NCBI GenBank assembly: GCA_001304225.1
Contig: LJVD01000004.1
Location: forward strand, 1-61,918
Length of the DNA: 61,918 nt
Source: a candidate division Zixibacteria bacterium SM1_73
GTDB lineage: Bacteria; Zixibacteria; MSB-5A5; SM1-73
Reading direction: 5' to 3'
Shown here: piece by piece, positions 2,661 to 29,230 of the stretch
Layout of the letters: each line of letters begins with the position of its first letter
Position numbering within the stretch: position 1 is the first letter of the stretch
The notes under the pieces: generated by a model
What the model was told of the DNA's origin: nothing
Database searches by the model: none
What the model saw: only the letters and a program-made list of their open reading frames with translations
Made by a program: the position numbers and the translations under genes

Positions 2661-2957
2661 ATGGCAGGTAGCAAGCTCTATGTAGGAAATCTTGGCTATT
2701 CCGTAACTAATCAGGACCTGGAAGATTTGTTCTCCGAGTACGGTGAAGTTAGGCAAATCAACATAATTGAAGGTAGGGGTTTCGGATTTGTTGAAATGTC
2801 TAACCCATCGGAAGCTGAGAAAGCAAAGGAAGCATTGGACGGTTCCAATTACAAAGGACTTACCTTGAAAGTTGACGAAGCTCGCCCGCCTAGAAGGAGA
2901 GAAAGAGGAGCTCGCCCGCCTAGAAGGAGGCAAGGAAGGGATTATCGAAGATATTAG
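2661..2957 (+). CDS. RRM-type RNA-binding protein with Arg-rich tail
   Basis: RNP2 LYVGNL and RNP1 RGFGFVEM motifs. The C-terminus carries ARPPRRRERG/ARPPRRRQGR. Confidence 0.85.
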   Translation: MAGSKLYVGNLGYSVTNQDLEDLFSEYGEVRQINIIEGRGFGFVEMSNPSEAEKAKEALDGSNYKGLTLKVDEARPPRRRERGARPPRRRQGRDYRRY

Positions 2958-3199
2958 AATAATTGAGAGTTAATATAAATTTAGTGTTGAATACAGTATA
3001 GTAATGGGCTGGCCATGTACCATATGGTAAATGGTCAGCCACTTCATATAACTTGGCGCTTTTGCCCAGTGCTTCGTACCGGATAAAGGACACGCGCTTT
3101 GGATGGTCTTTGCGGCTCTGGGAACTTGTCCCAGGCGGAGTGAAGGGCTTACTTTGAGCGAAACCGAAAGGTTTCTCCAAACCTCTGACTTCTATTATG

Positions 3200-3229
3200 C
3201 CCCACAGATAGACTGTGGGGTTATTCTTT
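3200..3229 (+). terminator. rho-independent terminator-like hairpin
   Basis: ccccacag-ataga-ctgtgggg followed by ttattcttt. It lies about 240 nt after the RRM stop codon. Confidence 0.5.
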
Positions 3230-3273
3230 ATATGTACCAGAACTTAAGTTGATCCAATAATTTCATCAAAATC

Positions 3274-3302
3274 AGTATAGCTTTTCGAAAGCTTTCCGTC
3301 AC
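3274..3302 (-). promoter_or_regulatory. second copy of the endoQ promoter-leader module, with no clear gene downstream
   Basis: The minus strand reads GTGACG, a 17-nt spacer, then TATACT. The surrounding ~56 bp (3246-3301) are about 75% identical to 2195-2250. Confidence 0.35.
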
Positions 3303-3421
3303 CAAAACGCAAATAAAGTCCTTGCAAAAAATTACAAAGCTATTATATTAAAAAAACAAATGGGGGTTATTTTTTTTCTACATTTTTGTAGACTCTCTTG
3401 ACGTAGTAAATTGCGTGGGAG

Positions 3422-4096
3422 ATGGCCAAGAAGATTATAGCCATAGATGGACCGGCGAGTTCTGGAAAAAGCACCACCGCTAAGCTGGTGGCAAAGAAAT
3501 TGAATTTTTTTTATCTGGATACTGGAGCAATGTATCGTGCTATAACTCTGAAGGCTTTGGAAGAAAGTGTGGACGTTAATGATGAAAAAAAATTGGAAAA
3601 GTTGGTCAAAGATTCCGTCATATCATTCAAAAACGAAAATGGTATCCAAAAGATACTATTGGATGGCAAGGATGTGAGCGAGAAGATCAGGAAGCCTTTG
3701 GTGGATTACAATGTCTCTTTGGTCTCTATGCATAAAAAGGTTAGAAAAGTTTTGGTTGAAAAGCAGAAAGAAATCGGTCGAAAACACAATTTGGTAGCAG
3801 AAGGAAGGGATACCACCACCGTGGTCTTTCCTCATGCTTTTAAAGTATATTTAGACGCGGATTTGAAAGAAAGAGCAAAAAGGCGGTTTTTGGAGCTTAA
3901 AGATAAGGGGATTCAAACTTCGCTGGAAGAACAGATGAAAGAGATCGCCCAAAGGGACAAACTCGATTCCGAAAGGGAGGCAAGCCCCCTTTGTCTGGCC
4001 AAAGATGCGATGGTGGTGGACACCACTCATCTGACCATTGAAGAGCAGGTGAACAGGGTGATTGAACTTTACGAAGATACATCTCGAGTTTCCTGA
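3422..4096 (+). CDS. cmk: cytidylate kinase
   Basis: P-loop IAIDGPASSGKST and DTGAMYRA motifs. It lies upstream of rpsA, the classic cmk-rpsA synteny. Confidence 0.9.
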   Translation: MAKKIIAIDGPASSGKSTTAKLVAKKLNFFYLDTGAMYRAITLKALEESVDVNDEKKLEKLVKDSVISFKNENGIQKILLDGKDVSEKIRKPLVDYNVSLVSMHKKVRKVLVEKQKEIGRKHNLVAEGRDTTTVVFPHAFKVYLDADLKERAKRRFLELKDKGIQTSLEEQMKEIAQRDKLDSEREASPLCLAKDAMVVDTTHLTIEEQVNRVIELYEDTSRVS

Positions 4097-4188
4097 GATT
4101 GGGCCTTTGACAGGCATGAGATTCTGGTCAAGATCGAGCCAATGAGAATTCCAAAGACGGGAGACCCGACGATAGACTCAGTTAAAAG

Positions 4189-4812
4189 GTGAGAACTCAT
4201 TACTTTTTAGGTTGGGCAATTATTAATCTAATGCTCAGAATTCTTTGGCGGTTCAGAAAAAAGGGAGCAGAATTTATCCCCAAAAAAGGTGGGGTAATCA
4301 TAGCTTCCAACCATGCAGCTTATGTGGACCCGCCCTTTCTGGGGGCAGCTTCCACCCGAGAACTTTATTATCTAGCAAAGACTGAACTTTTCAGCAATGG
4401 ACTTTTAGGCTGGTTGATCCGGAAATATAATGCCTTTCCCATAATCAGGGGATCTTTTGATAGGAAGGGAATGTCTCAGGCCGCGGAACTTTTAAGAGAA
4501 AAGAAGGCGCTTCTCCTTTTTCCTGAGGGGACCAGAAGCAGAGATGGAAACCTTTTGGAGCCCAAATTGGGGTTGGGAAAGATAGCCCTGGAAGCGGGCG
4601 TCCCCATAGTCCCCGCCTATATTGCCAACTCAAAAGACCTATTTTCGACCTTTTTGAAAAGGAGAAGATTGGTGATCCTCTTTGGTTCGCCCATTCTCAA
4701 AAGTTGGCTGGATAGAATTCCGAAAGATAAAGAGGGGTATAAGAGAATAGGACAAGAGATAATGTCGAGGATCAGAATGCTGAAAGAAAAAGCAGAAAAT
4801 GATGATTTTTGA
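4189..4812 (+). CDS. plsC: 1-acyl-sn-glycerol-3-phosphate acyltransferase
   Basis: NHAAYVDP (the NHxxxxD motif) and FPEGTRS motifs. GTG start. Confidence 0.85.
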   Translation: MRTHYFLGWAIINLMLRILWRFRKKGAEFIPKKGGVIIASNHAAYVDPPFLGAASTRELYYLAKTELFSNGLLGWLIRKYNAFPIIRGSFDRKGMSQAAELLREKKALLLFPEGTRSRDGNLLEPKLGLGKIALEAGVPIVPAYIANSKDLFSTFLKRRRLVILFGSPILKSWLDRIPKDKEGYKRIGQEIMSRIRMLKEKAENDDF

Positions 4813-4867
4813 TTTGCTTTATTAAAAGAGTTGAGTAGATTATCTAAAAGGCCTCTGGTAGGTAATA

Positions 4868-5704
4868 ATGAAAGTTTTTGTGGTTAAGAAGGCGGGTTTT
4901 TGCTTCGGAGTAAAAAGAGCCATCAAGCTTGCCTTCGACTGTGCCAAGAGGAAAAACGAAAAAGTTTTTACCTGGGGACCTTTGATTCATAATCCCCAAG
5001 TGGTGGAGAACTTAAAGAAAAAAGGCGTTTGTGCCGTAGAGGATTTAAGAAAAATCAAAAAAGGAACTTTGATCATTCGTTCGCACGGCATACATCCGAA
5101 GATATTGGAGAGGATAAAAAAGAGAAAAATCGAGGTGGTGGATGCCACCTGCCCTTTTGTGAAGAGGGCTCAGAAGAAAGCGAGGCTTCTTTCCCATCAG
5201 GGCTATCAGGTAGCGGTGGTAGGAGAGGCGGATCATCCGGAGGTTCAGGGAATCATGGGATATGTTAACGGCTCAGCGCTGGTGATAAACCAAAATCGGA
5301 GCAAACGGAACCTTCCTCATTTTGAGAGATTGGGAGTGATCGCTCAAACCACCTTAAGCCTTGATGCCTTCAAACAAACGATTGGGGAGCTGCTTGAGAA
5401 GGCGGATGAGTTAAAGGTGTGCAACACCATATGTCATGCCACTGCCCGTGCTCAGAGGGCCACTTTAAAGCTGGCCAGCAAGGTGGATATGATGATCGTG
5501 GTGGGAGGACACAATTCAGCCAACACCAATCGCTTGGCAAAATTGTGCAAAGGACTGAGAACTCCCACTCATCATATTGAGACGGCAAAAGAATTGCGAA
5601 GGAATTGGTTTAAAGGCAAAACCAGCGTGGGAGTGACTGCCGGCACCTCTACTCCGGACTGGCTTATCCAAGAGGTGGTGGAGAGTATAAGAAAATGCAA
5701 TTGA
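4868..5704 (+). CDS. ispH: 4-hydroxy-3-methylbut-2-enyl diphosphate reductase
   Basis: N-terminal AGFCFGVKRAI and the conserved cysteines and histidines of the LytB family. Confidence 0.9.
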   Translation: MKVFVVKKAGFCFGVKRAIKLAFDCAKRKNEKVFTWGPLIHNPQVVENLKKKGVCAVEDLRKIKKGTLIIRSHGIHPKILERIKKRKIEVVDATCPFVKRAQKKARLLSHQGYQVAVVGEADHPEVQGIMGYVNGSALVINQNRSKRNLPHFERLGVIAQTTLSLDAFKQTIGELLEKADELKVCNTICHATARAQRATLKLASKVDMMIVVGGHNSANTNRLAKLCKGLRTPTHHIETAKELRRNWFKGKTSVGVTAGTSTPDWLIQEVVESIRKCN

Positions 5705-5751
5705 ATTTCACAGCCTTTCTGAATTTTGGATTAGCAAGATTTGATTCGAAA

Positions 5752-5851
5752 ATATGTCCTTCAGGATGATTCCTATCCTTCGACCCGGAGGTCTCACCTC
5801 TCCCGCCAAAGGCGGGATCAGTGCGAGGCAGGACCGAAGGGCAGGATGATT
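5752..5851 (-). repeat. ~100-bp intergenic repeat, copy A (inverted relative to copy B)
   Basis: The reverse complement aligns with 13171-13270 at about 88% identity. The core is cctgcccttcggtcYtgcctcgcactgatcccgcctttggcgggagaRgtgagacc. Confidence 0.8.
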
Positions 5852-5891
5852 CCATATTTGGACAAATTCCATATAAAGGAGGAACCGTTTA

Positions 5892-8204
5892 ATGGTTGAG
5901 GAGAAAAAATCCAAACCAGCATCTGCCCCCAAGAGGAAGGGTAAGGCAGAGACCAAATCTGGGGCAGCTGCTAAAATTTCCAAAAAAGGAGGTGAGAAGA
6001 AGGTCAGAAGCACGACCAAACGACCAGCCGCCAAAAGAAGAAGAATTGCAAAGAAGAAAACCATCAGCAAAAAGGAGACAACGGCGCAAGCCACCGTGAC
6101 CCCGGAAAAACCAAAGGAGGCAGAAGTCCCTAAAAAGGTTGCCAAGCCATTGCCCAAAGAGAAACCTTCTTTTAATTCTGCCCAGGCTTTGGCTAAGGCG
6201 ATGGAAAGGGAGTATTCCTCAGATGAATTCGATGAATTTCTAAAAATGTATGAAACCACCCTGCGTGATATCCAGGAAGGAGAAATCATAAAGGGGAAAG
6301 TGATGGGTGTGACCAAGGAGGATATTATTGTGGACGTGGGGTTCAAATCGGAGGGAATCATACCCTTAGCGGAATTCCCCGAGCCTCTGAACATAAAGGT
6401 AGGAGATGAAATAGAAGTATTCTTAGATGCCATAGAGGATCAAGATGGACAATTGGTCTTGTCTAAGCAAAAAGCCGATTTCATGCGAGTGTGGGAGAAA
6501 GTAAGAGAATCCCATGATAAGGGTGAATTGATTGAAGGCAAGGTTATACGCAGAATTAAGGGGGGAATGGTGGTGGATCTTTTGGGCGTGGACGCTTTTC
6601 TGCCTGGTTCACAGATAGCATTAAAGCAGATTCCGGATTTTGATGCCCTTTTAGGGCAGAACATGGAGCTTAAGGTAATTAAGCTCAACAAGGCTCGGCG
6701 CAACATAGTGGTCTCACGAAGGGTGGTCTTAGAGGAGGAAAGACAGCGGCAAAGAGAAAAGCTTTTGGCTGAAGTGCAACCCGGACAGACCATGGAGGGG
6801 GTGGTAAAGAATATTACCGATTTCGGGGTGTTCATCGATTTGGGAGGAGTGGACGGGCTTCTTCATATCACCGATATGTCCTGGGGAAGGATAAGCCATC
6901 CTAGCGAACTGGTGGCATTAGGTGATAAGATTAACATAAAGATATTGGATTTTGACAAGAGCACAGGAAGGATCTCCTTAGGTTTGAAACAGCTCACCCC
7001 CTATCCTTGGGAAAACATCGAGGAAAGATACCCGGTAGGAAAAAGAGTCAAAGGAAAGGTGGTTTCCATCACCGACTACGGTGCTTTCGTGGAGTTAGAG
7101 AAGGGAGTGGAGGGTTTAATTCACATCTCCGAGATGTCGTGGACACAACATATAAAGCATCCTTCTAAATTGATGGGAATCGGAGATGTGGTGGAAGCAG
7201 TGGTGTTGTCGGTGGATAAGGAAAATGAAAAGATCTCCTTAGGGATCAAACAATTAGAGCCGGATCCTTGGGCGAACATTGAGGAGAAATACAGGGTTGG
7301 CTCCCGGATAAGCGGCCGGGTCAGAAACCTGACCGCTTTTGGCGCTTTCTTGGAATTGGAGGAGGGAATTGACGGTTTAATCCACATCTCCGATATGTCC
7401 TGGACCAAAAGGATTCAGCATCCTTCAGAGCTGATGAGAAAGGGGGAGAGGATAGAGGTGGCGGTGTTGAATGTGGACAAGGAGACCCGCAGGATCTCCT
7501 TGGGCTACAAACATCTCAAGGAGGATCCTTGGCCCGAACTGTCAAGAAAATTTGGAATCAACAAAGAGACCACGGGCAAGATCCTGCGCCTTCTGGACAG
7601 AGGAGTCATCGTCGATTTGGGCGATGAGGTGGAGGGGTTTGTCTCCACCAATCAGTTGGGAAAACCGGAGATTACCAGACCAATAGATGCCTTTAATGAA
7701 GGAGATGAGATACCCTTGAAGGTGATAGAGTTCGATAGGTCTGGGAAACGAATCGTTCTCTCCGTGGACGCATATTATCGGGGAAGAGAGAAGGCCGAAC
7801 TTGAAGCATTCTTGGCCAAACATCCGACCAAAACCCTTAAGGTGGAGGAGATAGTAGAGGAGCGTCCTAAATTAGAGGTAGAAAAAAAGTTCGAGGAAAA
7901 AACAAAAGAAGCTTCTTCCCCATCTGGACCTCCCCGGATAAAGACAGAGGAAACCCACAAGGTTGAAACTGAAGATAAACCCATGCCTGAAGTAGAGGAG
8001 GAGAAAGAGGAAACTCCTCCCCAAGCTGAAGCGCCAGAGGTAAAGGCAGAAGAACTTTCCCGACCCAAAACCGAAGAGAAACCTAAAGGTGAGGGAGACG
8101 TAGTAAAAGACGAATCCAGCCCCTCAAAAGGAACTGGAGAGGTTCCTGAAACCAAGGGAGAAGATGAAACACCTGAGAAAAAAGGGGAGGAAACCAGCAC
8201 TTAG
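5892..8204 (+). CDS. rpsA: 30S ribosomal protein S1 with long charged N- and C-terminal extensions
   Basis: Six S1 (OB) repeats with GxVxxxxxxGxFVDLGG-like motifs. Lys-rich first ~100 aa and Glu/Lys/Pro-rich last ~130 aa. Confidence 0.9.
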   Translation: MVEEKKSKPASAPKRKGKAETKSGAAAKISKKGGEKKVRSTTKRPAAKRRRIAKKKTISKKETTAQATVTPEKPKEAEVPKKVAKPLPKEKPSFNSAQALAKAMEREYSSDEFDEFLKMYETTLRDIQEGEIIKGKVMGVTKEDIIVDVGFKSEGIIPLAEFPEPLNIKVGDEIEVFLDAIEDQDGQLVLSKQKADFMRVWEKVRESHDKGELIEGKVIRRIKGGMVVDLLGVDAFLPGSQIALKQIPDFDALLGQNMELKVIKLNKARRNIVVSRRVVLEEERQRQREKLLAEVQPGQTMEGVVKNITDFGVFIDLGGVDGLLHITDMSWGRISHPSELVALGDKINIKILDFDKSTGRISLGLKQLTPYPWENIEERYPVGKRVKGKVVSITDYGAFVELEKGVEGLIHISEMSWTQHIKHPSKLMGIGDVVEAVVLSVDKENEKISLGIKQLEPDPWANIEEKYRVGSRISGRVRNLTAFGAFLELEEGIDGLIHISDMSWTKRIQHPSELMRKGERIEVAVLNVDKETRRISLGYKHLKEDPWPELSRKFGINKETTGKILRLLDRGVIVDLGDEVEGFVSTNQLGKPEITRPIDAFNEGDEIPLKVIEFDRSGKRIVLSVDAYYRGREKAELEAFLAKHPTKTLKVEEIVEERPKLEVEKKFEEKTKEASSPSGPPRIKTEETHKVETEDKPMPEVEEEKEETPPQAEAPEVKAEELSRPKTEEKPKGEGDVVKDESSPSKGTGEVPETKGEDETPEKKGEETST

Positions 8205-22014: not shown

Positions 22015-23442
22015 TCAACTTTTTTTGGGAAAAATGTTCTTTATCGCCTTTATGATCAGATCATCCTGATGAGGGAAAATGGTTCTTAAATCCAACACGA
22101 ATTTCTCATCCTCTATGCGGCCAATTATGGGTGGAGATTGTTCTCTGAAAAGCTGGGCTAACTGATCAGCGGTATGAACCGCATGGTTCATACCAGCGGA
22201 TTCAGTAGATTCAACAGATATTGCCACTGTTGGCAAGGTTTCACCTGGAAGGGAGCCTCCTCCCACCGTGCTTTTGCTCTCTTTTATGGTGATTGAAATT
22301 CCTGATTTGTGTAACTCTTCTTTGATATTCTCCGCCCTTTTTCTCAAAACATCCAAAGGAGCGCTGATCATTTGCCAGGCAGGAATCTTTTTAGTTGCCT
22401 GGCCCTTGAGATAAGAAAGCAAAACGCTTTCCAGGCCGGCAATGAACATTTTATCCAATCTTAGGGCGCGGTGAAGAGGGTGTTTTCTTAACAGATCAAT
22501 ATATTTCTTCCTCCCCAAAATTATTCCGGCTTGAGGTGCACCCAAGAGCTTATCCCCTGAAAAACAGACCAGGTCTGCTCCAGCGGAAATAGCCTCCAGT
22601 GCCGTGGGCTCGTGCGCCAGTTCAAAATCCTCGGTCCTGAGCATGACTCCGCTTCCCAGATCCTCTGCCGCACAAAGATTGTGCTTCCTTCCTAAATTCA
22701 CTAATTCACTTATAGGCGGTCTCTCTACAAATCCGATCATTCTGAAATTGCTCTGATGGACTTTGAGCAGAAGGGCGGTATCCTGAGTTATGGCGTTCTC
22801 ATAATCGGAAAGGGTGGTCTTGTTGGTGGTTCCCACTTCTTTTAAAATTGCTCCGCTCAAAGCTAAAATCTCAGGGATGCGAAAGCCACCGCCTATCTGC
22901 ACCAACTCGCCTCTTGAGACGATAACCTCTTTTCCTTCTGCTAAAGCGGTCAGAATCAAAAGAACTGCCCCGGCGTTGTTATTTACTGCTAAGGCAGCCT
23001 CGGCTTGAGTCAACTGGCACAAAAGCTTTTGTAAAAAAATTCCTCTATGGCTTCTTTTTCCCGCTTTGAGATCAAATTCCAAATTATTATAATTCTTGCT
23101 GATCTCTACTATGTGGGACAATGACTCTTCATCCAAGGGTGCGCGTCCCAGATTGGTGTGCAGGATCACCCCGGTGGCATTGATCACCGGTCGGACTAAA
23201 TCCGTAGTCTTTTCTTCAACAGCTTGGCTAACTTTTTCGACTATTTGATCAAAGGAAATATCTTGTGGAACTTCTTTGATCTGTTCTCTTATGGAGGAAA
23301 GCATCTCTTTTGCTGTTTGGCTTACCAGAGGATGGGAATATTTTTCGATTTTCTCTTTTAGCTTTTCCGATTCTAAGATTTTTTCGACGCTAGGAAGCTG
23401 TCTTAACTTCTCCTTGATCAGCTTTTCACTTGGATTTTGCAT
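22015..23442 (-). CDS. selA: L-seryl-tRNA(Sec) selenium transferase
   Basis: PLP-lysine context FSGDKLLGAPQAGII and an N-terminal LPSVEKIL motif. Confidence 0.9.
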   Translation of the reverse strand: MQNPSEKLIKEKLRQLPSVEKILESEKLKEKIEKYSHPLVSQTAKEMLSSIREQIKEVPQDISFDQIVEKVSQAVEEKTTDLVRPVINATGVILHTNLGRAPLDEESLSHIVEISKNYNNLEFDLKAGKRSHRGIFLQKLLCQLTQAEAALAVNNNAGAVLLILTALAEGKEVIVSRGELVQIGGGFRIPEILALSGAILKEVGTTNKTTLSDYENAITQDTALLLKVHQSNFRMIGFVERPPISELVNLGRKHNLCAAEDLGSGVMLRTEDFELAHEPTALEAISAGADLVCFSGDKLLGAPQAGIILGRKKYIDLLRKHPLHRALRLDKMFIAGLESVLLSYLKGQATKKIPAWQMISAPLDVLRKRAENIKEELHKSGISITIKESKSTVGGGSLPGETLPTVAISVESTESAGMNHAVHTADQLAQLFREQSPPIIGRIEDEKFVLDLRTIFPHQDDLIIKAIKNIFPKKS

Positions 23443-24467
23443 CTTTTGTCCTCGACTATATCGCCAATGACCACAGAGTTGGGCACGCCTTTGGAAATAA
23501 GACGACCCAGAAGCTTCTGCTCCTTTTCTTTTGCCACCGCGATCAACAGTCCCCCGGAGGTTTGCGCATCGGATAGGATCAATTTTGCTTCCTCAGAGAT
23601 ATCCCGATCCCAATCTGCTTTATCCTGAATAAACTTAAGATTTGCCAAAGTACCACCTGGGACCACCCTCTGTTTTGCCAGTTCCCAAGCATAGTCTATC
23701 ACGGGAACCTTGGATAAAAAGACTCTTGCTCCAACATTTGAAGCCTGCACCAACTCCCACAGATGTCCCAAAAGCCCGTAACCTGTGATATCCGTACAAG
23801 CATTGATCCCCACATCCAGCATTGCCTCTGAGGCAAATTTATTTAGAAAAATCATTATCTTCACCGCTTCGGCTACCCACTTCTCCTCGACCTGCTCTTT
23901 TTTAATAGCCGTGGTTATGAGCCCAATCCCTAACGGCTTGGTCAACACCAAAGAATCTCCAACTTTGGCCTTGGCATTACTTATTATCTTATCTGGATGA
24001 ATTGTTCCGGTTACTGCCAGTCCATATAGCGGCTCTTTGGTTTTGAGAGTATGACCGCCTATTATAGCCACATCCGCCTCTTGGGTTTTGTCTGCGCCTC
24101 CCCTTAGGATTTCATCCACGGCCCATAAAGGAACGGACTTTGGAGGAAAACCAAGAAGATTAAGTGCAGATAAAGGTTTTCCTCCCATGGCGTAGATATC
24201 GCTTAAGGCATTAGCCGCCGCTATTCTCCCGAAATCATAAGGATCATCCACCACCGGCGGAAAGAAATCCACGGTTTGCACCAGAGCTAGATCTTCTCTT
24301 ATCTTGTAAACCCCGGCATCATCCACCGAGTTGAACCCAACCAACACATTCGGGTTTTTCATTTTGGGCAAATGACTCAGAACCTGAGTCAGGTCATCAG
24401 GACCACACTTTGACGCTCACCCAAAACTCGATGCCAAACGGGTCAATCTAATTTTTTGTTCACTCAT
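23418..24467 (-). CDS. selD: selenide, water dikinase containing selenocysteine (in-frame TGA at 24419-24417)
   Basis: The ORF track starts at 24371. The same frame is open upstream to the ATG at 24467, giving MSEQKIRLTRLASSFG-U-ASKCGPDDLTQVLSHLP. G-U-A-S-K aligns with the G-C-G-C-K active-site loop of E. coli SelD (Cys17/Lys20). Confidence 0.8.
24373..24391 (-). promoter_or_regulatory. SECIS-like hairpin for the selD UGA
   Basis: On the mRNA, tgactcag-GUU-ctgagtca is a perfect 8-bp stem. It starts 25 nt after the UGA, and the loop begins with G-U. Confidence 0.5.
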
Positions 24468-24530
24468 TTGATCTATTTCTTTTCCCGTTAGTGAATTTCA
24501 AAGGACAAATCGTTCCATTACTTGCTTTCC

Positions 24531-25499
24531 TCATTGACACTCGTCTCTTACAAACTTTCTCGTGGCACGAGTCGCCATAGCTCGACCAAAACTGAATGGA
24601 GTGGTACTCAAAAATTTATGAACCTGAATTATTCCGTAGTCCTCCAAATAACTAACTGCTCTGTTAATTCTACTTGGGGGTAATTTGGTGATTTCCTGAA
24701 TCTCTTGACCACTCAGTTCTTTTCTTGCCTCTATAGCAGAAACAATAATTTTAATGTCATTTTCGGGGTCATAACGTGTGCCTACCCCTCTGAAATGCAA
24801 ATATAAGGCGTAGGTTGGTTCGACTTGTGCGTAAGCAAAGGGTTGTGTTCCCAAAAATCGTAACGATTTTACCAGACCATGGGACTCAAGTTCTTCTATA
24901 GCATCATTTATTTCTTGGGGCGTAAACTCAAGAAGTTCGGACAGTTCCTTCACGTCATACCTTTTTCCAAACGGGCGACTATCGTCATTGTCCTTAACCA
25001 TGAATTCCCCTAATTTGGTAGCTTCAGGTGAGAGGCCTCCAATAGTCTCAGTTCGCGTAGCAACAAAGTCTGGGGGAACCCCTAATGTCGGCTTTTCTCT
25101 TATTTCAAAGATGCTTTTTAACAACTCTCGTGCCTTATTCTCAAAATCTGAAGACATATCGATCCATCTAAGGGGTTTTACAGCACTCGGTATATCACAT
25201 TGCTCTATAATAATCGGTATTATCTTCGTAATGCCCTGAATCTTCTTGATCATAGCAACATCAAGTTCATTTTGAACCCAATTTGACTTAACACTGCTCT
25301 TCGATAACAGTATCAAAAAGACGTCACAATTCCTCAGTCCTTCCTCAAATATTTTCTCGATTAAAGAATCTCCCGGCAATATTTCCCATTTATCCCACCA
25401 GGCATCGACGCCGTTTTCCCGAAGAATAGTTGCAATTTTCTCTGCGAAGCTTTTATCCGAATGGCTATAACTTATAAAGACTCGCGGTGCTTCGTCCAC
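24531..25499 (-). CDS. TIR-domain protein with two tandem wHTH-like C-terminal units
   Basis: TIR hallmarks VFISYSHSD and SKSSVKSNWVQNELDVA (candidate catalytic Glu). Internal C-terminal duplication: ELSELLEFTPQEINDAIEELESHGLVKSLRFLGTQPF and ELSGQEIQEITKLPPSRINRAVSYLEDYGIIQVHKFLSTTPF. GTG start 4 nt after AGGAGG. Confidence 0.8.
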   Translation of the reverse strand: MDEAPRVFISYSHSDKSFAEKIATILRENGVDAWWDKWEILPGDSLIEKIFEEGLRNCDVFLILLSKSSVKSNWVQNELDVAMIKKIQGITKIIPIIIEQCDIPSAVKPLRWIDMSSDFENKARELLKSIFEIREKPTLGVPPDFVATRTETIGGLSPEATKLGEFMVKDNDDSRPFGKRYDVKELSELLEFTPQEINDAIEELESHGLVKSLRFLGTQPFAYAQVEPTYALYLHFRGVGTRYDPENDIKIIVSAIEARKELSGQEIQEITKLPPSRINRAVSYLEDYGIIQVHKFLSTTPFSFGRAMATRATRKFVRDECQ

Positions 25500-25507
25500 T
25501 TCTCCTC

Positions 25508-26095
25508 CTATCTTTCACTAAACCACCGTTCAATATTCTCTTTCTTGATGATTGGGCGAACTGTTAAGGAAGTAATTCCAATTATTCCGCCCTGTAAGTC
25601 TCTTTTCTGACCCGGCGAAAACCAAATTGGTTTTGCTTGAACCGTACGGTCATCTTTTATGTGAACTACTTCAACAATAGCAATGCAGACTTCTACGTCC
25701 GCTAAATTTCGATATACCTCAAATAACGAACCAATTTCAGTGTTGTAATTACCCACAAAAAGAAAAATGTGATCTCCGCCAAAATCATCACAGCGTTGAA
25801 TACTTCTTAAAGTTATTTTCGAATATGAATTCTTGAATAGTCTGTATCCTTGATATGTAGCTGAAATTGTCAAGAACATAAGAGCAAAGAAGAACAAGAT
25901 TAGGAAGCAGATCCAGATACGGGTCAATATGTATACCGATGCCGGAAAAAGAAACCAGCCTCCAACGGTGGCGACTCCGGTGATAGTTGCCCACCACCAC
26001 CTAAAGAATGGGCCAAACATGATTCCTAAAAAGGTTGCATTTCTATTCATCTTTATCTCTCTGTCCCTGCGCAGTACCATCATCAAACAAGGCAA
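25508..26095 (-). CDS. small 2TM membrane protein with ~115-aa soluble C-terminal domain (unknown family)
   Basis: Hydrophobic helices FFRWWWATITGVATVGGWFLFPASVYIL and IWICFLILFFFALMFLTISATY. The stop codon lies 8 nt before the TIR start. An alternative start is the ATG at 26050 (MNRNATF). Confidence 0.6.
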   Translation of the reverse strand: MPCLMMVLRRDREIKMNRNATFLGIMFGPFFRWWWATITGVATVGGWFLFPASVYILTRIWICFLILFFFALMFLTISATYQGYRLFKNSYSKITLRSIQRCDDFGGDHIFLFVGNYNTEIGSLFEVYRNLADVEVCIAIVEVVHIKDDRTVQAKPIWFSPGQKRDLQGGIIGITSLTVRPIIKKENIERWFSER

Positions 26096-26178
26096 ACAGC
26101 ATCAGTTCAAAGAACCAACAGACATACAAAATCGTTTATTCTGCACCTTGTCTCATGAGGTACTTTCCAAAGATGGAT

Positions 26179-26406
26179 CTAAAGATTATTCATGAATTCC
26201 TCCGAGGTAACTTTCGCTTGCTTGAGAATTCCCTTGAGCGTCCCAATCTTAAGCTCGCGATGAAGTGGAACAACGCAGCCAACTTCACCTTCTTTCGTTT
26301 GCTTTTTTAAAACTACATGGCTGCCCCGTTGCCTTACCTTTTCGAAACCAAGTCTGTGCAAGGATCGGAGGACTTCCTCTCCGGACACCTTCCTTAATTC
26401 ACGCAT
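26179..26406 (-). CDS. hicA: HicA-family mRNA interferase toxin
   Basis: 75 aa with GFEKVRQRGSHVVLKK (the HicA GSH motif). It overlaps hicB by 8 nt. Confidence 0.85.
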   Translation of the reverse strand: MRELRKVSGEEVLRSLHRLGFEKVRQRGSHVVLKKQTKEGEVGCVVPLHRELKIGTLKGILKQAKVTSEEFMNNL

Positions 26407-26611
26407 TAGCTACCACCTCAAATGTAGCAAGGATCGGTTTTTCAACCTTGGTTTGTGGAAATTCCTCCAGGTAAAGCTCTGTGGCTTCTTTGAGATTGGC
26501 GATTGCTTCTTCAATGGTGTAGCCTTGACTTACTGTTCCCACCTCGGGACACTCTGCCACATACATATCCTCTTCTTTATGGAGGATAGCAGTAAAGGTT
26601 AAGGTAGCCAT
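26399..26611 (-). CDS. hicB: HicB-family antitoxin (UPF0150 fold)
   Basis: 70 aa with YVAECPEVGTVSQGYTIEEAIANLKEA, typical of the HicB N-terminal domain. Confidence 0.85.
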   Translation of the reverse strand: MATLTFTAILHKEEDMYVAECPEVGTVSQGYTIEEAIANLKEATELYLEEFPQTKVEKPILATFEVVANA

Positions 26612-26678
26612 CCTTCAACCTCCTAAACTAGGTTATAAATAAGGCTTTGCATATATAATCCGTTATAACTTGCTTTGT

Positions 26679-27500
26679 TTATATATCGATTACCATTCCC
26701 ACTCCATTTGCGATGAAATCCTCCTTATATTCTTCTTTAAACAATTCTCTGGTTTTATCTCCAGAGCAATGGCAAGGGGCCGCCTTTTTCACGCCCAGTT
26801 CCCTGAAGCTTTTTATTATCTCTCTTAATTTAGAATCACCAACTCCTCCTAAGTGAAAGCCACCCAGAACCAAATAGATCTCCTCGGTGGTTATCTTTTT
26901 AGCTTCTCTTAACATCTCCACAATCCCGGGATGGGCACAGCCGGTTATCACCACCAGCCCCTTTTCTGTTTTCACGATTAAAGCTTGTTCTTTAATCCAG
27001 GTGCCCAGCTCTCCGGTGGTGCTCACGCTTTCAGATATCTTTACTGGACCGGCAACCTCAACCACATTTGCCTTGTATGATTTTACTTTGTTTTTAAAAT
27101 CATCGGGAAATGAACTCAATAAACAAACGTCGAGATTTGAGTTAATCTCCAATATCCCCGAAAGTCCACCGGTATGATCTCCGTGAATATGGGACAGCAC
27201 GATTGTATTTATGGTTTTTGGATCTATACCCAATTTCTGCATATTATAAAGCAAGGTTGAGCTCTCTCCGCCGGTATCAAAAAGAATATTTTTATCTCCC
27301 ACTTTAACCAGACAGGAGAACCCCCATCCTGTCTTCAATTCGGGATCATGCTCGTAATTATCATAAACGGTAATTAAAGTGATTTTTGCTTGAGTTGATT
27401 CCATTTTAACTTTCTCCATCCTTTCTGTTTTTCTGCAACTGAAAAATGAAATTAACAAAAGTATTACGAGGAAGGGTATAAATGGGAATAACTTTTTCAT
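26679..27500 (-). CDS. MBL-fold metallohydrolase lipoprotein
   Basis: SHIHGDHTGGL motif. Signal peptide plus lipobox (ISFFSC) from the ATG at 27500. The ORF-track extension to 27647 is translation through the tRNA gene. Confidence 0.75.
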   Translation of the reverse strand: MKKLFPFIPFLVILLLISFFSCRKTERMEKVKMESTQAKITLITVYDNYEHDPELKTGWGFSCLVKVGDKNILFDTGGESSTLLYNMQKLGIDPKTINTIVLSHIHGDHTGGLSGILEINSNLDVCLLSSFPDDFKNKVKSYKANVVEVAGPVKISESVSTTGELGTWIKEQALIVKTEKGLVVITGCAHPGIVEMLREAKKITTEEIYLVLGGFHLGGVGDSKLREIIKSFRELGVKKAAPCHCSGDKTRELFKEEYKEDFIANGVGMVIDI

Positions 27501-27556
27501 AATACCTTCAAACTGATTAACGAGATCACTTGACCATGTGCTAAAATTAAAATAAG

Positions 27557-27651
27557 CGGAAGGGGTGGGAATCGAACCCACCTCCCCCCGGACCAACCGA
27601 GGGGACCACGGATTTGAAGTCCGCAAGGACCACCAGATCCTATCCACTACA
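27557..27651 (-). tRNA. selC: tRNA-Sec-like gene (anticodon TCA); acceptor stem not resolved
   Basis: Anticodon loop CUUCAAA, with UCA at 27617-27615. The D arm is a 6-bp stem with a 4-nt loop (AGGAUC-UGGU-GGUCCU). The variable arm is a 9-bp stem (UCCCCUCGG-UUGGU-CCGGGGGGA). The T arm is GUGGG-UUCGAUU-CCCAC. The 3' strand CCCUUCC-G lacks a clean 5' partner; the observed 5' strand is UGUAGUGG. Confidence 0.6.
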
Positions 27652-27858
27652 AATTTTTTTGTTCGCTTTGATGAAGTTTAACCCAAACTTTCTCACAAAA
27701 TTCAAAGAGACAATTCAGAATTTGAAATTGTGATAATAGCATTGTAAATGGACATTTGCATGATGATCTTTTGGAGAATTTTTCATTTTTATCTTTGAAT
27801 TTCAAATTTTCACTAATATTTGTCTTTTACACATTTCAATTTCGTTCTCCAGGCGCAC

Positions 27859-28672: not shown

Positions 28673-29230
28673 ATGTATTCCGTAGTTATGGACATTCACA
28701 AAAGTTTTTTATCAGGTGACGGTTATAGATGAATCTGGGGAAGTAAAAGATCGGCGCCGCCTTAATCATACTCCCAAAGAGGAGTCGATAGAATATTTTA
28801 GTCAATTTCCTTCGGTTACGCAAGTGATAATGGAACCTACCTGTGGATGAGGGTGGCTTTCTGACTGTCTTTTGGATGCGGGATCGGAGGTGATTAAAAG
28901 TCGTGCCAAACAGAACCCTCAAGCTAAAAGGTTGATGACCATACCAGGAGTTGGATTTATTCTGACTTATCTTTTCCTCAGTGAGATAAGAGATATCAAC
29001 TGGGGTTTCATTGAGACGGCTGGTAGTGCTATCCGGTTTAATCCGGAGCTTAAATATTGGGCAGATAGGATCAAAGCCAAGAAAGTAGCTGGAGTAGCAA
29101 TCTGTGCGGTAGCCTGAAAGTTGGTGCATATAGTCTATCAAGTTTTGACTCAAAAAAGAGATTATCAACCCAGAAAAATCAGAACCCATCGGTCGAGCAG
29201 ACCGGTGAGCAACTTGGTTGTCAAATAACG
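28673..29230 (+). pseudogene. IS110-family transposase relic
   Basis: An RBS precedes the ATG at 28673. The reading is MYSVVMDIHKSFL..(frameshift)..VIDESGEVKDRR..MEPTCG-stop. The C-terminal domain then follows with LMTIPGVGFILTYLFLSEIRDI, then KLVHIVYQVLTQKRDY in another frame. The central part is missing. Confidence 0.65.

Follow-up and report, generated by a model that had tools for sequence, protein, structure and literature searches.

Which function do the four accessory genes have that interrupt the selenocysteine locus of the candidate division Zixibacteria bacterium SM1_73, and do two of them, coding for a two-transmembrane (2TM) protein and for a TIR protein with two winged-helix units (TIR-(wHTH)x2), form a TIR signalling module of their own? 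TIR signalling connects bacterial, plant, and animal immunity, and to our knowledge every newly found effector or receptor domain has until now led to a new ligand or to a new mode of cell killing. By analogy, we take the pair for a possible, so far undescribed relative of Thoeris anti-virus signalling. It is a small TIR operon that has been transferred widely, and two parts of it are uncharacterised, namely a duplicated acidic winged-helix module as putative sensor and a 2TM protein with a beta domain of no family. Its host lineages, among them Zixibacteria, anammox Planctomycetota, Desulfobulbaceae, methanogens, and Heimdallarchaeota, are thinly covered by defence screens. As a defence system the pair would add one more receptor fold and sensor type to the Thoeris repertoire. 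Asgard archaea would then have a TIR-plus-effector pair as well, a point of relevance to how eukaryotic TIR immunity arose. If it serves another purpose, a conserved partnership between a TIR protein and a membrane protein would still need an explanation.

The split selenocysteine locus

The window, that is the whole stretch of 61,918 nucleotides that was analysed, carries on its minus strand the gene order tRNA-Sec, MBL, hicB, hicA, 2TM, TIR-(wHTH)x2, selD, selA, and selB. From this order it can be read directly that the Sec locus is really split by four accessory genes, as the sequence-only reading had stated. The features are as follows.

27556–27651 (-), tRNA-Sec, flank (ARAGORN)
26679–27500 (-), MBL gene
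26399–26611 (-), hicB-like antitoxin gene, 70 aa (sub-threshold HicB_lk_antitox and UPF0150 matches)
26179–26406 (-), hicA toxin gene (Pfam HicA_toxin, 1.2e-17)
25508–26095 (-), longest 2TM open reading frame, 195 aa from TTG 26095
25508–26050 (-), 2TM gene, 180 aa from ATG 26050 (open reading frame; homologue starts)
25504–25509 (-), AGGAGG ribosome-binding site of the TIR gene (sequence reading)
24531–25499 (-), TIR-(wHTH)x2 gene, 322 aa, GTG start at 25499 (open reading frame, Pfam, AF2)
25110–25499 (-), TIR domain, aa 1–130 (Pfam, PDB profile matches, Foldseek)
25266–25268 (-), codon of Glu78 in SNWVQNEL, candidate catalytic glutamate (family conservation, alignment to AbTir)
24987–25109 (-), low-confidence linker, aa 131–171 (AF2 pLDDT <50 for aa 134–151)
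24786–24986 (-), winged-helix unit 1 (WH1), aa 172–238, acidic (AF2 secondary structure, hhalign, charge)
24534–24785 (-), winged-helix unit 2 (WH2), aa 239–322 (Pfam at aa 247–294, conservation, charge)
23418–24467 (-), selD, flank, AIRS and AIRS_C domains (Pfam)

The position beside tRNA-Sec is plausibly explained by accessory genes having entered the Sec locus. The region has an only slightly lower GC content than its flanks (0.40 vs 0.45). A search for long repeats on both sides of 24300–27750, including direct copies of the tRNA-Sec 3′ end, gave matches of chance length only, and in a promoter and terminator scan of 24300–27800 promoter-like sites were rarer than in shuffled sequence and nothing informative was found. 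The flanking selD gene has an in-frame UGA at 24417–24419 with a hairpin downstream.

The 2TM gene ends with the stop codon TAG at 25508–25510, and after a gap of 8 nt the TIR gene starts with the GTG at 25499. The AGGAGG sequence said to lie inside this gap is present, but shares two of its bases with the 2TM stop codon. Similarly, the distance of 83 nt given for hicA and the 2TM gene applies to the TTG start and becomes 128 nt with the ATG; in the close homologues (P0002, P0003; L087, L088) the 2TM start is at the position of this ATG, and 2TM homologues begin with MN(R/K)N.

The genes hicB and hicA do overlap by the 8 nt reported for them (26399–26406), and with a HicA toxin domain beside a HicB-fold antitoxin they qualify as HicAB. 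The hicB product is a HicB-like/UPF0150 match below threshold (22.6 bits, cutoff 27) and has no DNA-binding domain. The proposal that hicBA is a partner of the 2TM–TIR pair has to be given up. It lies beside the pair only in the window and in the closely related loci L087 and L088; L085/L086 lack it, and the families that recur in 20 distant loci do not include it. As the linkage is confined to close relatives, hicBA is not a component of the module.

The TIR protein and its membrane partner

The TIR half of the protein (Pfam TIR_2, E 1.5e-32, aa 7–127) contains both motifs pointed out earlier, FISYSHSD (aa 8–15) and SNWVQNEL (aa 72–79). The candidate catalytic glutamate of the second motif, Glu78, is invariant across 69 family members. 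In the alignment its counterpart is chain residue 78 (YELD) of 7uwg, equivalent to E208, the catalytic glutamate of AbTir (PMC10022894). The GDS motif of the BB-loop is invariant in the family as well, and both features together argue for an enzymatic use of the domain. Its PDB profile matches are BtTir (1.6e-19), AbTir (2e-18), and Cat1 (1.2e-16), all of them NAD+-cleaving enzymes and its nearest solved relatives; Foldseek matches AbTir, PdTIR, BtpA, and the SPARTA TIR. Bacteria and archaea have more than 569 homologues with a length of about 322 aa.

In agreement with the sequence-only reading, the C-terminal half is an internal duplication (aa 172–238 against aa 239–322, hhalign probability 99.5%, E 2.4e-22) of winged-helix character, as both copies match the Pfam wHTH families TrmB, MarR_2, and HTH_24; the AF2 model of the protein has a pLDDT of 80. 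With a mean net charge of -7.6 in the family, WH1 is strongly acidic, and for this reason the winged helices are, as far as can be judged from sequence, unlikely to be classical DNA binders. WH2 is neutral overall with a basic C-terminal tail and has the conserved residues R277, N279, and R280. In Foldseek searches the tandem structurally resembles subunits of ESCRT-II, which are protein scaffolds. Some family members carry the source annotation "MarR-family regulator".

The partner was expected to be a protein of 180–195 aa with two hydrophobic helices and a beta-rich soluble domain. This is just what the AF2 model (pLDDT 76) predicts: helices 7–34 and 41–75, a beta-rich domain 79–165, and a C-terminal helix. 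According to the positive-inside rule the topology is N-in/C-in with the beta domain in the cytoplasm, and the external loop has only about 8 residues. The family comprises 130 clusters at 50% identity and shares the motif FFRWWWAxxTG. At E ≤ 1 there was no Pfam match in 23 members and no match in PADLOC v2 (PADLOC-DB of 2023), and a PDB sequence-profile search gave no match. When the soluble domain was compared by Foldseek with PDB and BFVD, nothing was found below E 1e-3; the best match had 5e-3, and the top of the list consists of small barrels of a generic kind (Upf1 domain 1B, F1-ATPase N-terminal barrel, NOX FAD-binding barrel). A signal for SIR2, Macro, SLOG, SLATT, bPH, Cap15, or DUF6650 was sought in the 2TM protein and none was detected. 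The SLATT Pfam families had no match at E ≤ 1 in the 23 members, the bPH families had none among the 2TM members, one of which reached PH_20 at E 0.19 only, and no PH structure is in the Foldseek list.

Conservation and genomic context of the pair

Of the 22 closest genomic loci, 20 have a 2TM homologue (blastp E 1e-14 to 1e-39) directly upstream of the TIR gene, with -41 to +7 nt from the 2TM end to the TIR start. The pairing was also present in all seven further contig sets that were checked (L081/82, L083/84, L085/86, L087, L088, L089 from Methanobacterium lacus, and L090 from Heimdallarchaeota LC_3; hmmsearch E 1e-50 to 1e-78). The two genes are translationally juxtaposed neighbours, as their spacing in the window had implied, and are kept as such across very distant bacteria and archaea. 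Their distribution is patchy, with more than 10 bacterial and 3 archaeal lineages including methanogens and Heimdall archaea, which points to horizontal transfer. In addition, the two proteins co-vary (pairwise distances, Mantel r 0.80, p ≤ 2e-4). A third conserved gene was not found in Pfam and PADLOC scans of 124 neighbours and 10 immediate neighbours. At one locus (L016) a ThsB-like TIR takes the place of the 2TM gene; thus the TIR-wHTHx2 protein is not strictly dependent on its 2TM partner. Among the viral contigs searched the core clade is absent, only distant TIR-wHTH relatives with 29–36% identity occur, and there is no sign of a phage-borne origin of the pair. Loss of synteny in other genomes, a clean assignment to a named system, or a TIR domain without the aligned glutamate had been named as computational outcomes speaking against the pair, and none of them was observed.

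Defence genes, which an enrichment in defence islands would lead one to expect, lie next to some copies of the pair. BREX, Septu, RM, HEPN, or Cap4 neighbours occur at six loci (L013, L014, L021, L081, L083, L089): the pair lies within a BREX operon beside PtuA/PtuB-like genes (L083, L013), has a type I RM system on one side and two HEPN-ApeA genes on the other in Methanobacterium lacus (L089), adjoins a XamI RM system (L021), and is near a Cap4-type nuclease (L081). A single subclade (L013, L014, L021, L083) supplies most of the BREX, Septu, and RM cases. On the other hand, housekeeping genes make up most of the 124 scanned neighbours, and many copies, that of the window included, are located beside genes such as selD, alanine racemase, FAA hydrolase, and TldD. 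Therefore, judged from the neighbour genes, any enrichment would be modest to moderate only. Toxin–antitoxin genes (HicAB, UPF0150, Fic) lie next to the pair in the window, L087, L088, L001, and L009.

Known systems and possible mode of action

In its broad sense, Thoeris combines a TIR protein with a catalytic glutamate and a conserved operonic partner that could be an effector; here the TIR_2 match (1.5e-32) with the invariant Glu78 would provide the former and the 2TM gene the latter. As judged by Pfam (23 members), PADLOC, and hhalign, the 2TM protein is not a member of a named Thoeris effector family; the families compared were SIR2-SLOG, Macro-TM, SLOG, caspase-like, DUF2270, DUF6650, SLATT, CMP hydrolase-TPR, TIR-SLOG, ion channel, and HIT hydrolase. 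Type II Thoeris (ThsB and the 2TM-Macro effector, now ThsC) also has two genes in one operon, one for a TIR protein and one for a small effector whose N-terminal TM helices precede a C-terminal domain in the cytoplasm, and by analogy we presume a common logic in which an ADPR-derived signal gates a membrane effector. However, the 2TM partner has no Macro domain (Pfam, PADLOC), the TIR is TIR_2/AbTir-like with two winged helices and matches the ThsB_TIR profile weakly (1.9e-7), and the gene order of the pair is effector-first. CBASS Cap15 resembles the 2TM partner in its overall build, with a small cytoplasmic domain of mainly beta structure behind two TM helices. In contrast to CBASS, no CD-NTase is present in any pair locus examined, the PADLOC CBASS effector models do not match the 2TM partner, and no Cap15 structure is among its best 50 Foldseek PDB matches.

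Types VI and VII Thoeris use a TM-DUF6650 effector (ThsG) and a SLATT effector (ThsH), for which oligomerisation on binding 2′cADPR or cADPR is predicted (bioRxiv 10.64898/2025.12.03.692087). Here, too, a TIR protein is found beside a membrane-spanning effector, but the 23 2TM members have no DUF6650 or SLATT Pfam signal. The TM protein whose gene precedes the type VI-like TIR gene in plasmids of L. plantarum and Listeria was rejected as a relative of the 2TM protein, as it is helical and unrelated (hhalign probability 0.3%). Since it has no Pfam DUF6650 match itself, the comparison to type VI is indirect. The copy of this TM gene on an E. coli plasmid is degraded.

The best structural and sequence matches of the TIR domain are the sensor-fused TIR effectors, that is SPARTA TIR-APAZ, Cat1 (CARF-TIR), and the TIR-SAVED group, which likewise join a TIR_2-class domain to a non-catalytic sensor or assembly module. 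In the protein studied here this module is a duplicated winged helix instead of APAZ, CARF, or SAVED, and the constant partner is the 2TM protein instead of an Argonaute, CRISPR, or CD-NTase component. The best PADLOC match of the TIR protein is bSEFIR (PDLC03957, 4.7e-24, aa 1–206), but the match is partial (profile positions 35–241 of 412, 84 bits only) and bSEFIR is a single-gene system without a 2TM partner. PDC-S66, also a single-gene TIR system of PADLOC, is matched in its TIR part only (profile positions 151–240 of 282). Thus, both proteins fit no named system in PADLOC v2 or Pfam. The suggestion of an undescribed variant therefore stands for the named types that could be compared, whereas the comparison with the Thoeris catalogue of 29 types covers a part of that source.

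We suggest, with a probability of about one half, that the 2TM and TIR-(wHTH)x2 genes are a self-contained, horizontally mobile two-gene cassette, whose most likely role is abortive infection of a Thoeris-like kind. The conserved pairing and the co-variation, the TIR domain with its invariant Glu78, the build of the partner, the patchy distribution, and the copies in defence contexts, the Hma loci of more distant TIR-wHTHx2 proteins included, speak for it. We infer the defence function, the trigger, and the chemical product, as well as which of the two partners is the effector, and by analogy the signal would run from the TIR protein as generator to the 2TM protein as effector. Before infection the TIR protein would be held inactive in the cytoplasm. 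The tandem winged-helix module would then recognise an infection cue, for which, in view of the acidic WH1, a protein or a change in the 2TM partner is a better candidate than DNA. The TIR domains could assemble and cleave NAD+ in a Glu78-dependent manner to an ADP-ribose-derived product, and this product, or the activated TIR protein itself, may act on the 2TM partner at its beta-rich domain in the cytoplasm; the partner would oligomerise, compromise the membrane, and halt the infected cell. Signal-gated membrane effectors with two TM helices and a cytoplasmic domain are known from type II Thoeris, from CBASS Cap15, and from types VI and VII Thoeris, and the 2TM protein shares their build. 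Against this reading, its beta domain has no recognisable ligand-binding fold, many copies of the pair have housekeeping neighbours, the BREX, Septu, and RM cases are largely those of one subclade, and at L016 the TIR-wHTHx2 protein does without the 2TM partner. More tentatively, the odds being against it, the pair may be a new Thoeris-type system of bacteria and archaea, Asgard archaea included, in which the acidic winged helices sense a viral protein, the TIR domain makes an ADPR-derived, possibly new messenger, and a new beta-domain receptor sits on a 2TM pore-former. The predicted receptor appears in this case to have no detectable relative among the known nucleotide-binding folds (Foldseek, PDB profile).

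The same module could also work the other way round, with the TIR protein as NAD+-depleting killer, the 2TM protein as membrane sensor, tether, or inhibitor, and no diffusible signal. The 2TM protein would bind the tandem winged helices and release or activate the TIR on envelope perturbation, for example, phage DNA injection. Sensor-fused TIRs such as SPARTA, Cat1, and TIR-SAVED are usually NAD+-depleting effectors and not signal generators, which fits this arrangement, as does the closeness of the TIR domain to NAD+-consuming and sensor-fused effector TIRs (AbTir, Cat1, SPARTA TIR-APAZ). A stoichiometric complex would suit the overlapping or tightly coupled genes and the strong co-variation of both proteins, the acidic WH1 and the likeness to ESCRT-II scaffold subunits suggest a protein-interaction surface, and a beta domain without known nucleotide-binding fold would fit as well. 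Nevertheless, we consider it rather unlikely, because an external loop of about 8 residues leaves little to sense outside the cell and because, in every characterised signalling defence system known to us, small 2TM proteins with a cytoplasmic domain are effectors and never sensors.

That the pair has already been catalogued is unlikely. It could be, for example, one of the roughly 29 putative TIR-plus-effector Thoeris configurations (Yirmiya et al. 2025, bioRxiv 10.64898/2025.12.03.692087) or a newer DefenseFinder or PADLOC candidate, given that the PADLOC-DB compared dates from 2023 and the comparison with Table S1 of Yirmiya et al. covers part of that table. In that part, however, neither the family motifs PGDSLI, GDSLIQKIF, DKWEI, and KIFEEGL nor a "2TM" effector class was found, and the main text mentions no winged helix, HTH, or beta-barrel. 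The unrelated TM effector beside type VI-like TIRs and the missing PADLOC match of the 2TM protein speak in the same direction, a literature search for TIR-wHTH or TIR-HTH style names and for TIR, wHTH, transmembrane, and anti-phage gave no description, and the family occurs mainly in archaea and uncultured anaerobes, which defence-score pipelines sample thinly. Least probable in our view is a non-immune role, either as a toxin–antitoxin-like addiction cassette or as a membrane-stress or NAD-responsive regulatory pair, whose winged helices bind DNA and autoregulate the operon and which hicBA might join as a four-gene unit. The MarR annotation, the conserved Arg and Asn residues in the WH2 recognition helix, the flanking toxin–antitoxin genes, and the housekeeping surroundings of many copies would agree with it. 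But a strongly acidic WH1 and an overall neutral WH2 are atypical of DNA-binding regulators, hicBA is missing in L085/L086 and all distant loci, the invariant catalytic Glu and GDS motif favour enzymatic use, and a position within BREX and RM operons is what defence genes typically have.

Two further comparisons concern the boundaries of the TIR family. The archaeal NADase TcpO, which as a member would have lent the family experimental evidence of NADase activity, was rejected, as its TIR is at residues 204–341 in a different architecture. Distant TIR-wHTHx2 proteins are encoded directly after HmaC of the Hma defence system in nine loci (L045, L051, L056, L058, L064, L066, L072–L074). They have the same domain architecture and length (29–36% identity) and are part of a defence operon, but their upstream partner is the ATPase HmaC of about 950 aa (PADLOC E = 0) and not a 2TM protein. 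These Hma-associated proteins are a sister clade with a different context.

Conservation of the 2TM–TIR gene pair

The 2TM gene and the gene coding for a TIR protein with two winged-helix units (TIR-wHTHx2) are conserved as a unit that is self-sufficient and horizontally mobile, and this is our main result. By scanning one genome per GTDB species we obtained 80 TIR-wHTHx2 loci. Within the closest set of 22 loci (37–53% identity over the full length) a 2TM homologue (blastp E 1e-14 to 1e-39) is encoded directly upstream and in the same orientation in 20 loci, with −41 to +7 nt between both genes. The two exceptions are locus L018, where the contig ends, and locus L016 (5429–6939; one Deltaproteobacteria MAG), where the TIR-wHTHx2 orthologue (41% identity) follows a ThsB-like TIR (PDLC00421 7.5e-62, Pfam ThsB_TIR 3.4e-15) in place of the 2TM gene, a TIR–TIR pairing which is reminiscent of type IX Thoeris. 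Look-ups from both sides gave the same picture: a TIR-wHTH gene was found downstream of the divergent 2TM proteins P0158 and P0146, and a 2TM member upstream of the TIR genes of Methanobacterium lacus and Heimdallarchaeota LC_3 (hmmsearch E 1e-50 to 1e-78). The sequence-only reading had paired both genes, and the objection that they might not be syntenic in other genomes is thereby removed. In addition, the pairwise distances of the 2TM proteins correlate with those of the TIR proteins (Mantel r 0.80, p ≤ 2e-4), and no third recurrent gene is present among 124 neighbouring ORFs. The hosts include Methanotrichaceae, Methanosarcinales, Kuenenia, Anaerolineae, Chloroflexia, Desulfobacteria, Planctomycetia, Byssovorax, Binatia, Chlorobiaceae, Desulfobulbus, Chitinophaga and Elusimicrobiota.

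In the window the pair is located within the selenocysteine (Sec) locus, and the gene layout described earlier was right in all details that can be checked against the window sequence and the ORF and tRNA coordinates.

Features of the Sec locus in the window
27556–27651, minus strand, tRNA-Sec
26679–27500, minus strand, metallo-beta-lactamase-fold (MBL) gene
26399–26611, minus strand, hicB-like gene
26179–26406, minus strand, hicA, 8-nt overlap with hicB
25508–26095, minus strand, 2TM gene (longest ORF, TTG start)
24531–25499, minus strand, TIR gene (322 codons, GTG start)
23418–24467, minus strand, selD, with an in-frame UGA at 24417–24419
Downstream of selD, minus strand, selA and selB

The start position in the 2TM homologues corresponds to ATG 26050 and yields a protein of 180 aa. 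Between the 2TM stop codon (TAG, 25508–25510) and the GTG of the TIR gene there are 8 nt. The sequence AGGAGG (25504–25509) overlaps the stop codon, which is a classic layout for translational coupling of the two genes.

Properties of the two proteins

The TIR domain (aa 7–127) matches Pfam TIR_2 with 1.5e-32 and the Thoeris ThsB_TIR profile with just 1.9e-7. Among solved structures, BtTir (1.6e-19), AbTir (2e-18), Cat1 (1.2e-16), PdTIR and TcpB are recovered with a profile built from 69 members of the family, and the AF2 model (pLDDT 80) superposes on AbTir, PdTIR, BtpA and the SPARTA TIR. Glu78 in the motif SNWVQNEL is invariant in the whole family and aligns in the profile alignment with residue 78 of the 7uwg chain, that is E208 of AbTir, the catalytic glutamate of this enzyme (PMC10022894). 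The GDS of the BB-loop and the FxSYxHxD strand are invariant or almost so across the family. PADLOC gave partial best matches, with bSEFIR reaching 84 bits over half its profile and PDC-S66 being confined to the TIR part.

A disordered linker (aa 134–151) is followed by the two winged-helix units WH1 and WH2. Their internal duplication is real, as the profile–profile comparison of the two halves has a probability of 99.5% (E 2.4e-22, 54 columns). The sole non-TIR structural match of the model is an ESCRT-II subunit, likewise a tandem winged helix. Averaged over the family, the net charge of the strongly acidic WH1 is −7.6 for the whole unit and −5.6 for the "recognition" helix; WH2 is approximately neutral with conserved R277, N279 and R280, and the tail is basic. 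These charges make the module look unlike a standard DNA-binding regulator. Some source annotations label members as MarR-family. The family comprises more than 569 clusters of uniform length (about 322 aa).

For the 2TM protein the AF2 model (37 sequences, pLDDT 76) shows helices at 7–34 and 41–75, five to six beta strands between 79 and 165 and a C-terminal helix. Lysines and arginines cluster ahead of TM1 and behind TM2, and the loop of 8 residues between the two helices contains none. This distribution indicates an N-in/C-in topology with a cytoplasmic beta domain, which is thus on the same side of the membrane as the TIR protein. Conservation is strongest in the motif FFRWWWAxxTG, where TM1 begins on the cytoplasmic side, followed by G107, E120 and Q138 of the beta domain (180-aa numbering). 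When 1.84 billion representative proteins were searched exhaustively with a profile, only 130 clusters were obtained, nearly all of 175–197 aa and with no informative fusions among them. No match was found in Pfam (23 members, E ≤ 1), among the PADLOC models or in the PDB sequences, and the structure search of PDB and BFVD gave no significant neighbour (best E 5e-3, generic small barrels). By PADLOC, Pfam and structure search, Cap15, bPH and SLATT are ruled out as identities of this protein.

Defence context and proposed mode of action

In loci L083 (1–12576) and L013 (2016–11226) the pair is inserted in a BREX operon. PglX is followed by the 2TM and TIR genes, then by a PtuA/PtuB-like pair (AAA_21/AAA_15) and a large gene (784 aa), and in L083 by BrxL; this is a nested defence-in-defence arrangement. 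In Methanobacterium lacus (2926–7692) the pair lies between HsdS/HsdM of a type I restriction–modification (RM) system and two HEPN-ApeA genes. The latter are divergently placed, and with a VRR_NUC gene the region is a compact archaeal defence island. Elsewhere, the pair adjoins a XamI RM system (L021) or has a Cap4-type nuclease nearby (L081). Housekeeping genes surround many other copies, and the BREX, Septu and RM cases stem largely from one subclade. The association with defence genes is suggestive. At nine loci (L045, L051, L056, L058, L064, L066, L072, L073 and L074; ~3000–6950 in each), sister-clade TIR-wHTHx2 genes (29–36% identity) come directly after the gene for HmaC (PADLOC E = 0), the Hma system's DUF499 ATPase, and overlap it by 4 nt; this points to a TIR accessory gene of the Hma defence system that is as yet undescribed. 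As a separate observation, the E. coli plasmid p13TMH22-1 (L091, 814–1702) carries a degraded type VI Thoeris-like locus, in which a frameshift interrupts the TIR gene and the upstream TM effector is reduced to a 90-aa remnant.

The two-gene cassette is real and conserved, and it is probably an immune system. As in Thoeris, a catalytic TIR is encoded next to a conserved partner; no named effector family includes this partner. We suggest, with a probability of about one half, a Thoeris-like scheme of TIR and membrane effector, because the TIR is the only enzyme of the operon that could make a small molecule and its partner is built like known signal-gated membrane effectors. The winged-helix module would sense an infection cue, upon which the TIR domains would assemble and cleave NAD+ via Glu78. 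The cytoplasmic beta domain of the 2TM protein would then be engaged by an ADPR-derived product or directly by the activated TIR protein, and the 2TM protein would oligomerise and breach the membrane. The main rival holds that the TIR itself is the NAD+-depleting effector and is held or released by the 2TM protein through direct contact. The resemblance to sensor-fused effector TIRs, the acidic WH1 and the tight co-variation of both proteins speak for this possibility, which we regard as less likely than the Thoeris-like scheme. It is quite improbable that the genes form a non-immune toxin–antitoxin-like or regulatory pair.

TIR plus membrane effector is a known kind of system, and its general logic is now well populated. 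A preprint from the Sorek lab (December 2025) lists 29 putative TIR–effector configurations, with types V to XI validated (bioRxiv 10.64898/2025.12.03.692087); its text mentions neither a winged-helix TIR nor a 2TM effector with a beta domain. None of the family motifs occurs in the compared part of its Table S1, and as 8,937 rows lie outside this comparison we consider it unlikely, rather than negligible, that the pair is already catalogued. The putative sensor module and effector domain of the cassette are both uncharacterised; the cassette stands out by its conservation across domains, including Asgard archaea, and by a partner outside all known families.

Neighbouring genes in the Sec locus

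In the window and in two close relatives (L087 and L088, TIR 71–76% identical) the pair is preceded by hicB–hicA. These two genes are missing in another close relative (L085/L086, 79% identical), where selD is kept downstream, and do not recur in distant loci. The link is thus confined to close relatives, and hicBA is best seen as a neighbour inherited in a narrow lineage. Accessory genes may plausibly have been inserted next to tRNA-Sec. A search for an att-like repeat of the end of tRNA-Sec found none; ~1.2 kb past this tRNA, a short ORF (28872–29117, plus strand) scores 20.7 bits against Transposase_20 (IS110 family; cutoff 21.3) and may be a decayed IS element.

The longest ORF of the MBL-fold gene (26679–27647, minus strand) runs into tRNA-Sec, and the start is probably ATG 27500, with an N-terminus (MKKLFPF...SFFSC) resembling a lipoprotein signal. 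Below threshold, the protein also matches the anti-Pycsar family Apyc1 weakly (E 0.009). Finally, selD (23418–24467, minus strand) is itself a selenoprotein gene with an in-frame TGA at codon 17 (G-U-A-S-K), in agreement with Sec/Cys17 and Lys20 of the SelD motif. ORF callers cut the gene at 24371, and the UGA is followed by a stable hairpin (24360–24425; −23 kcal/mol, z −3.3) that resembles a bacterial SECIS element.
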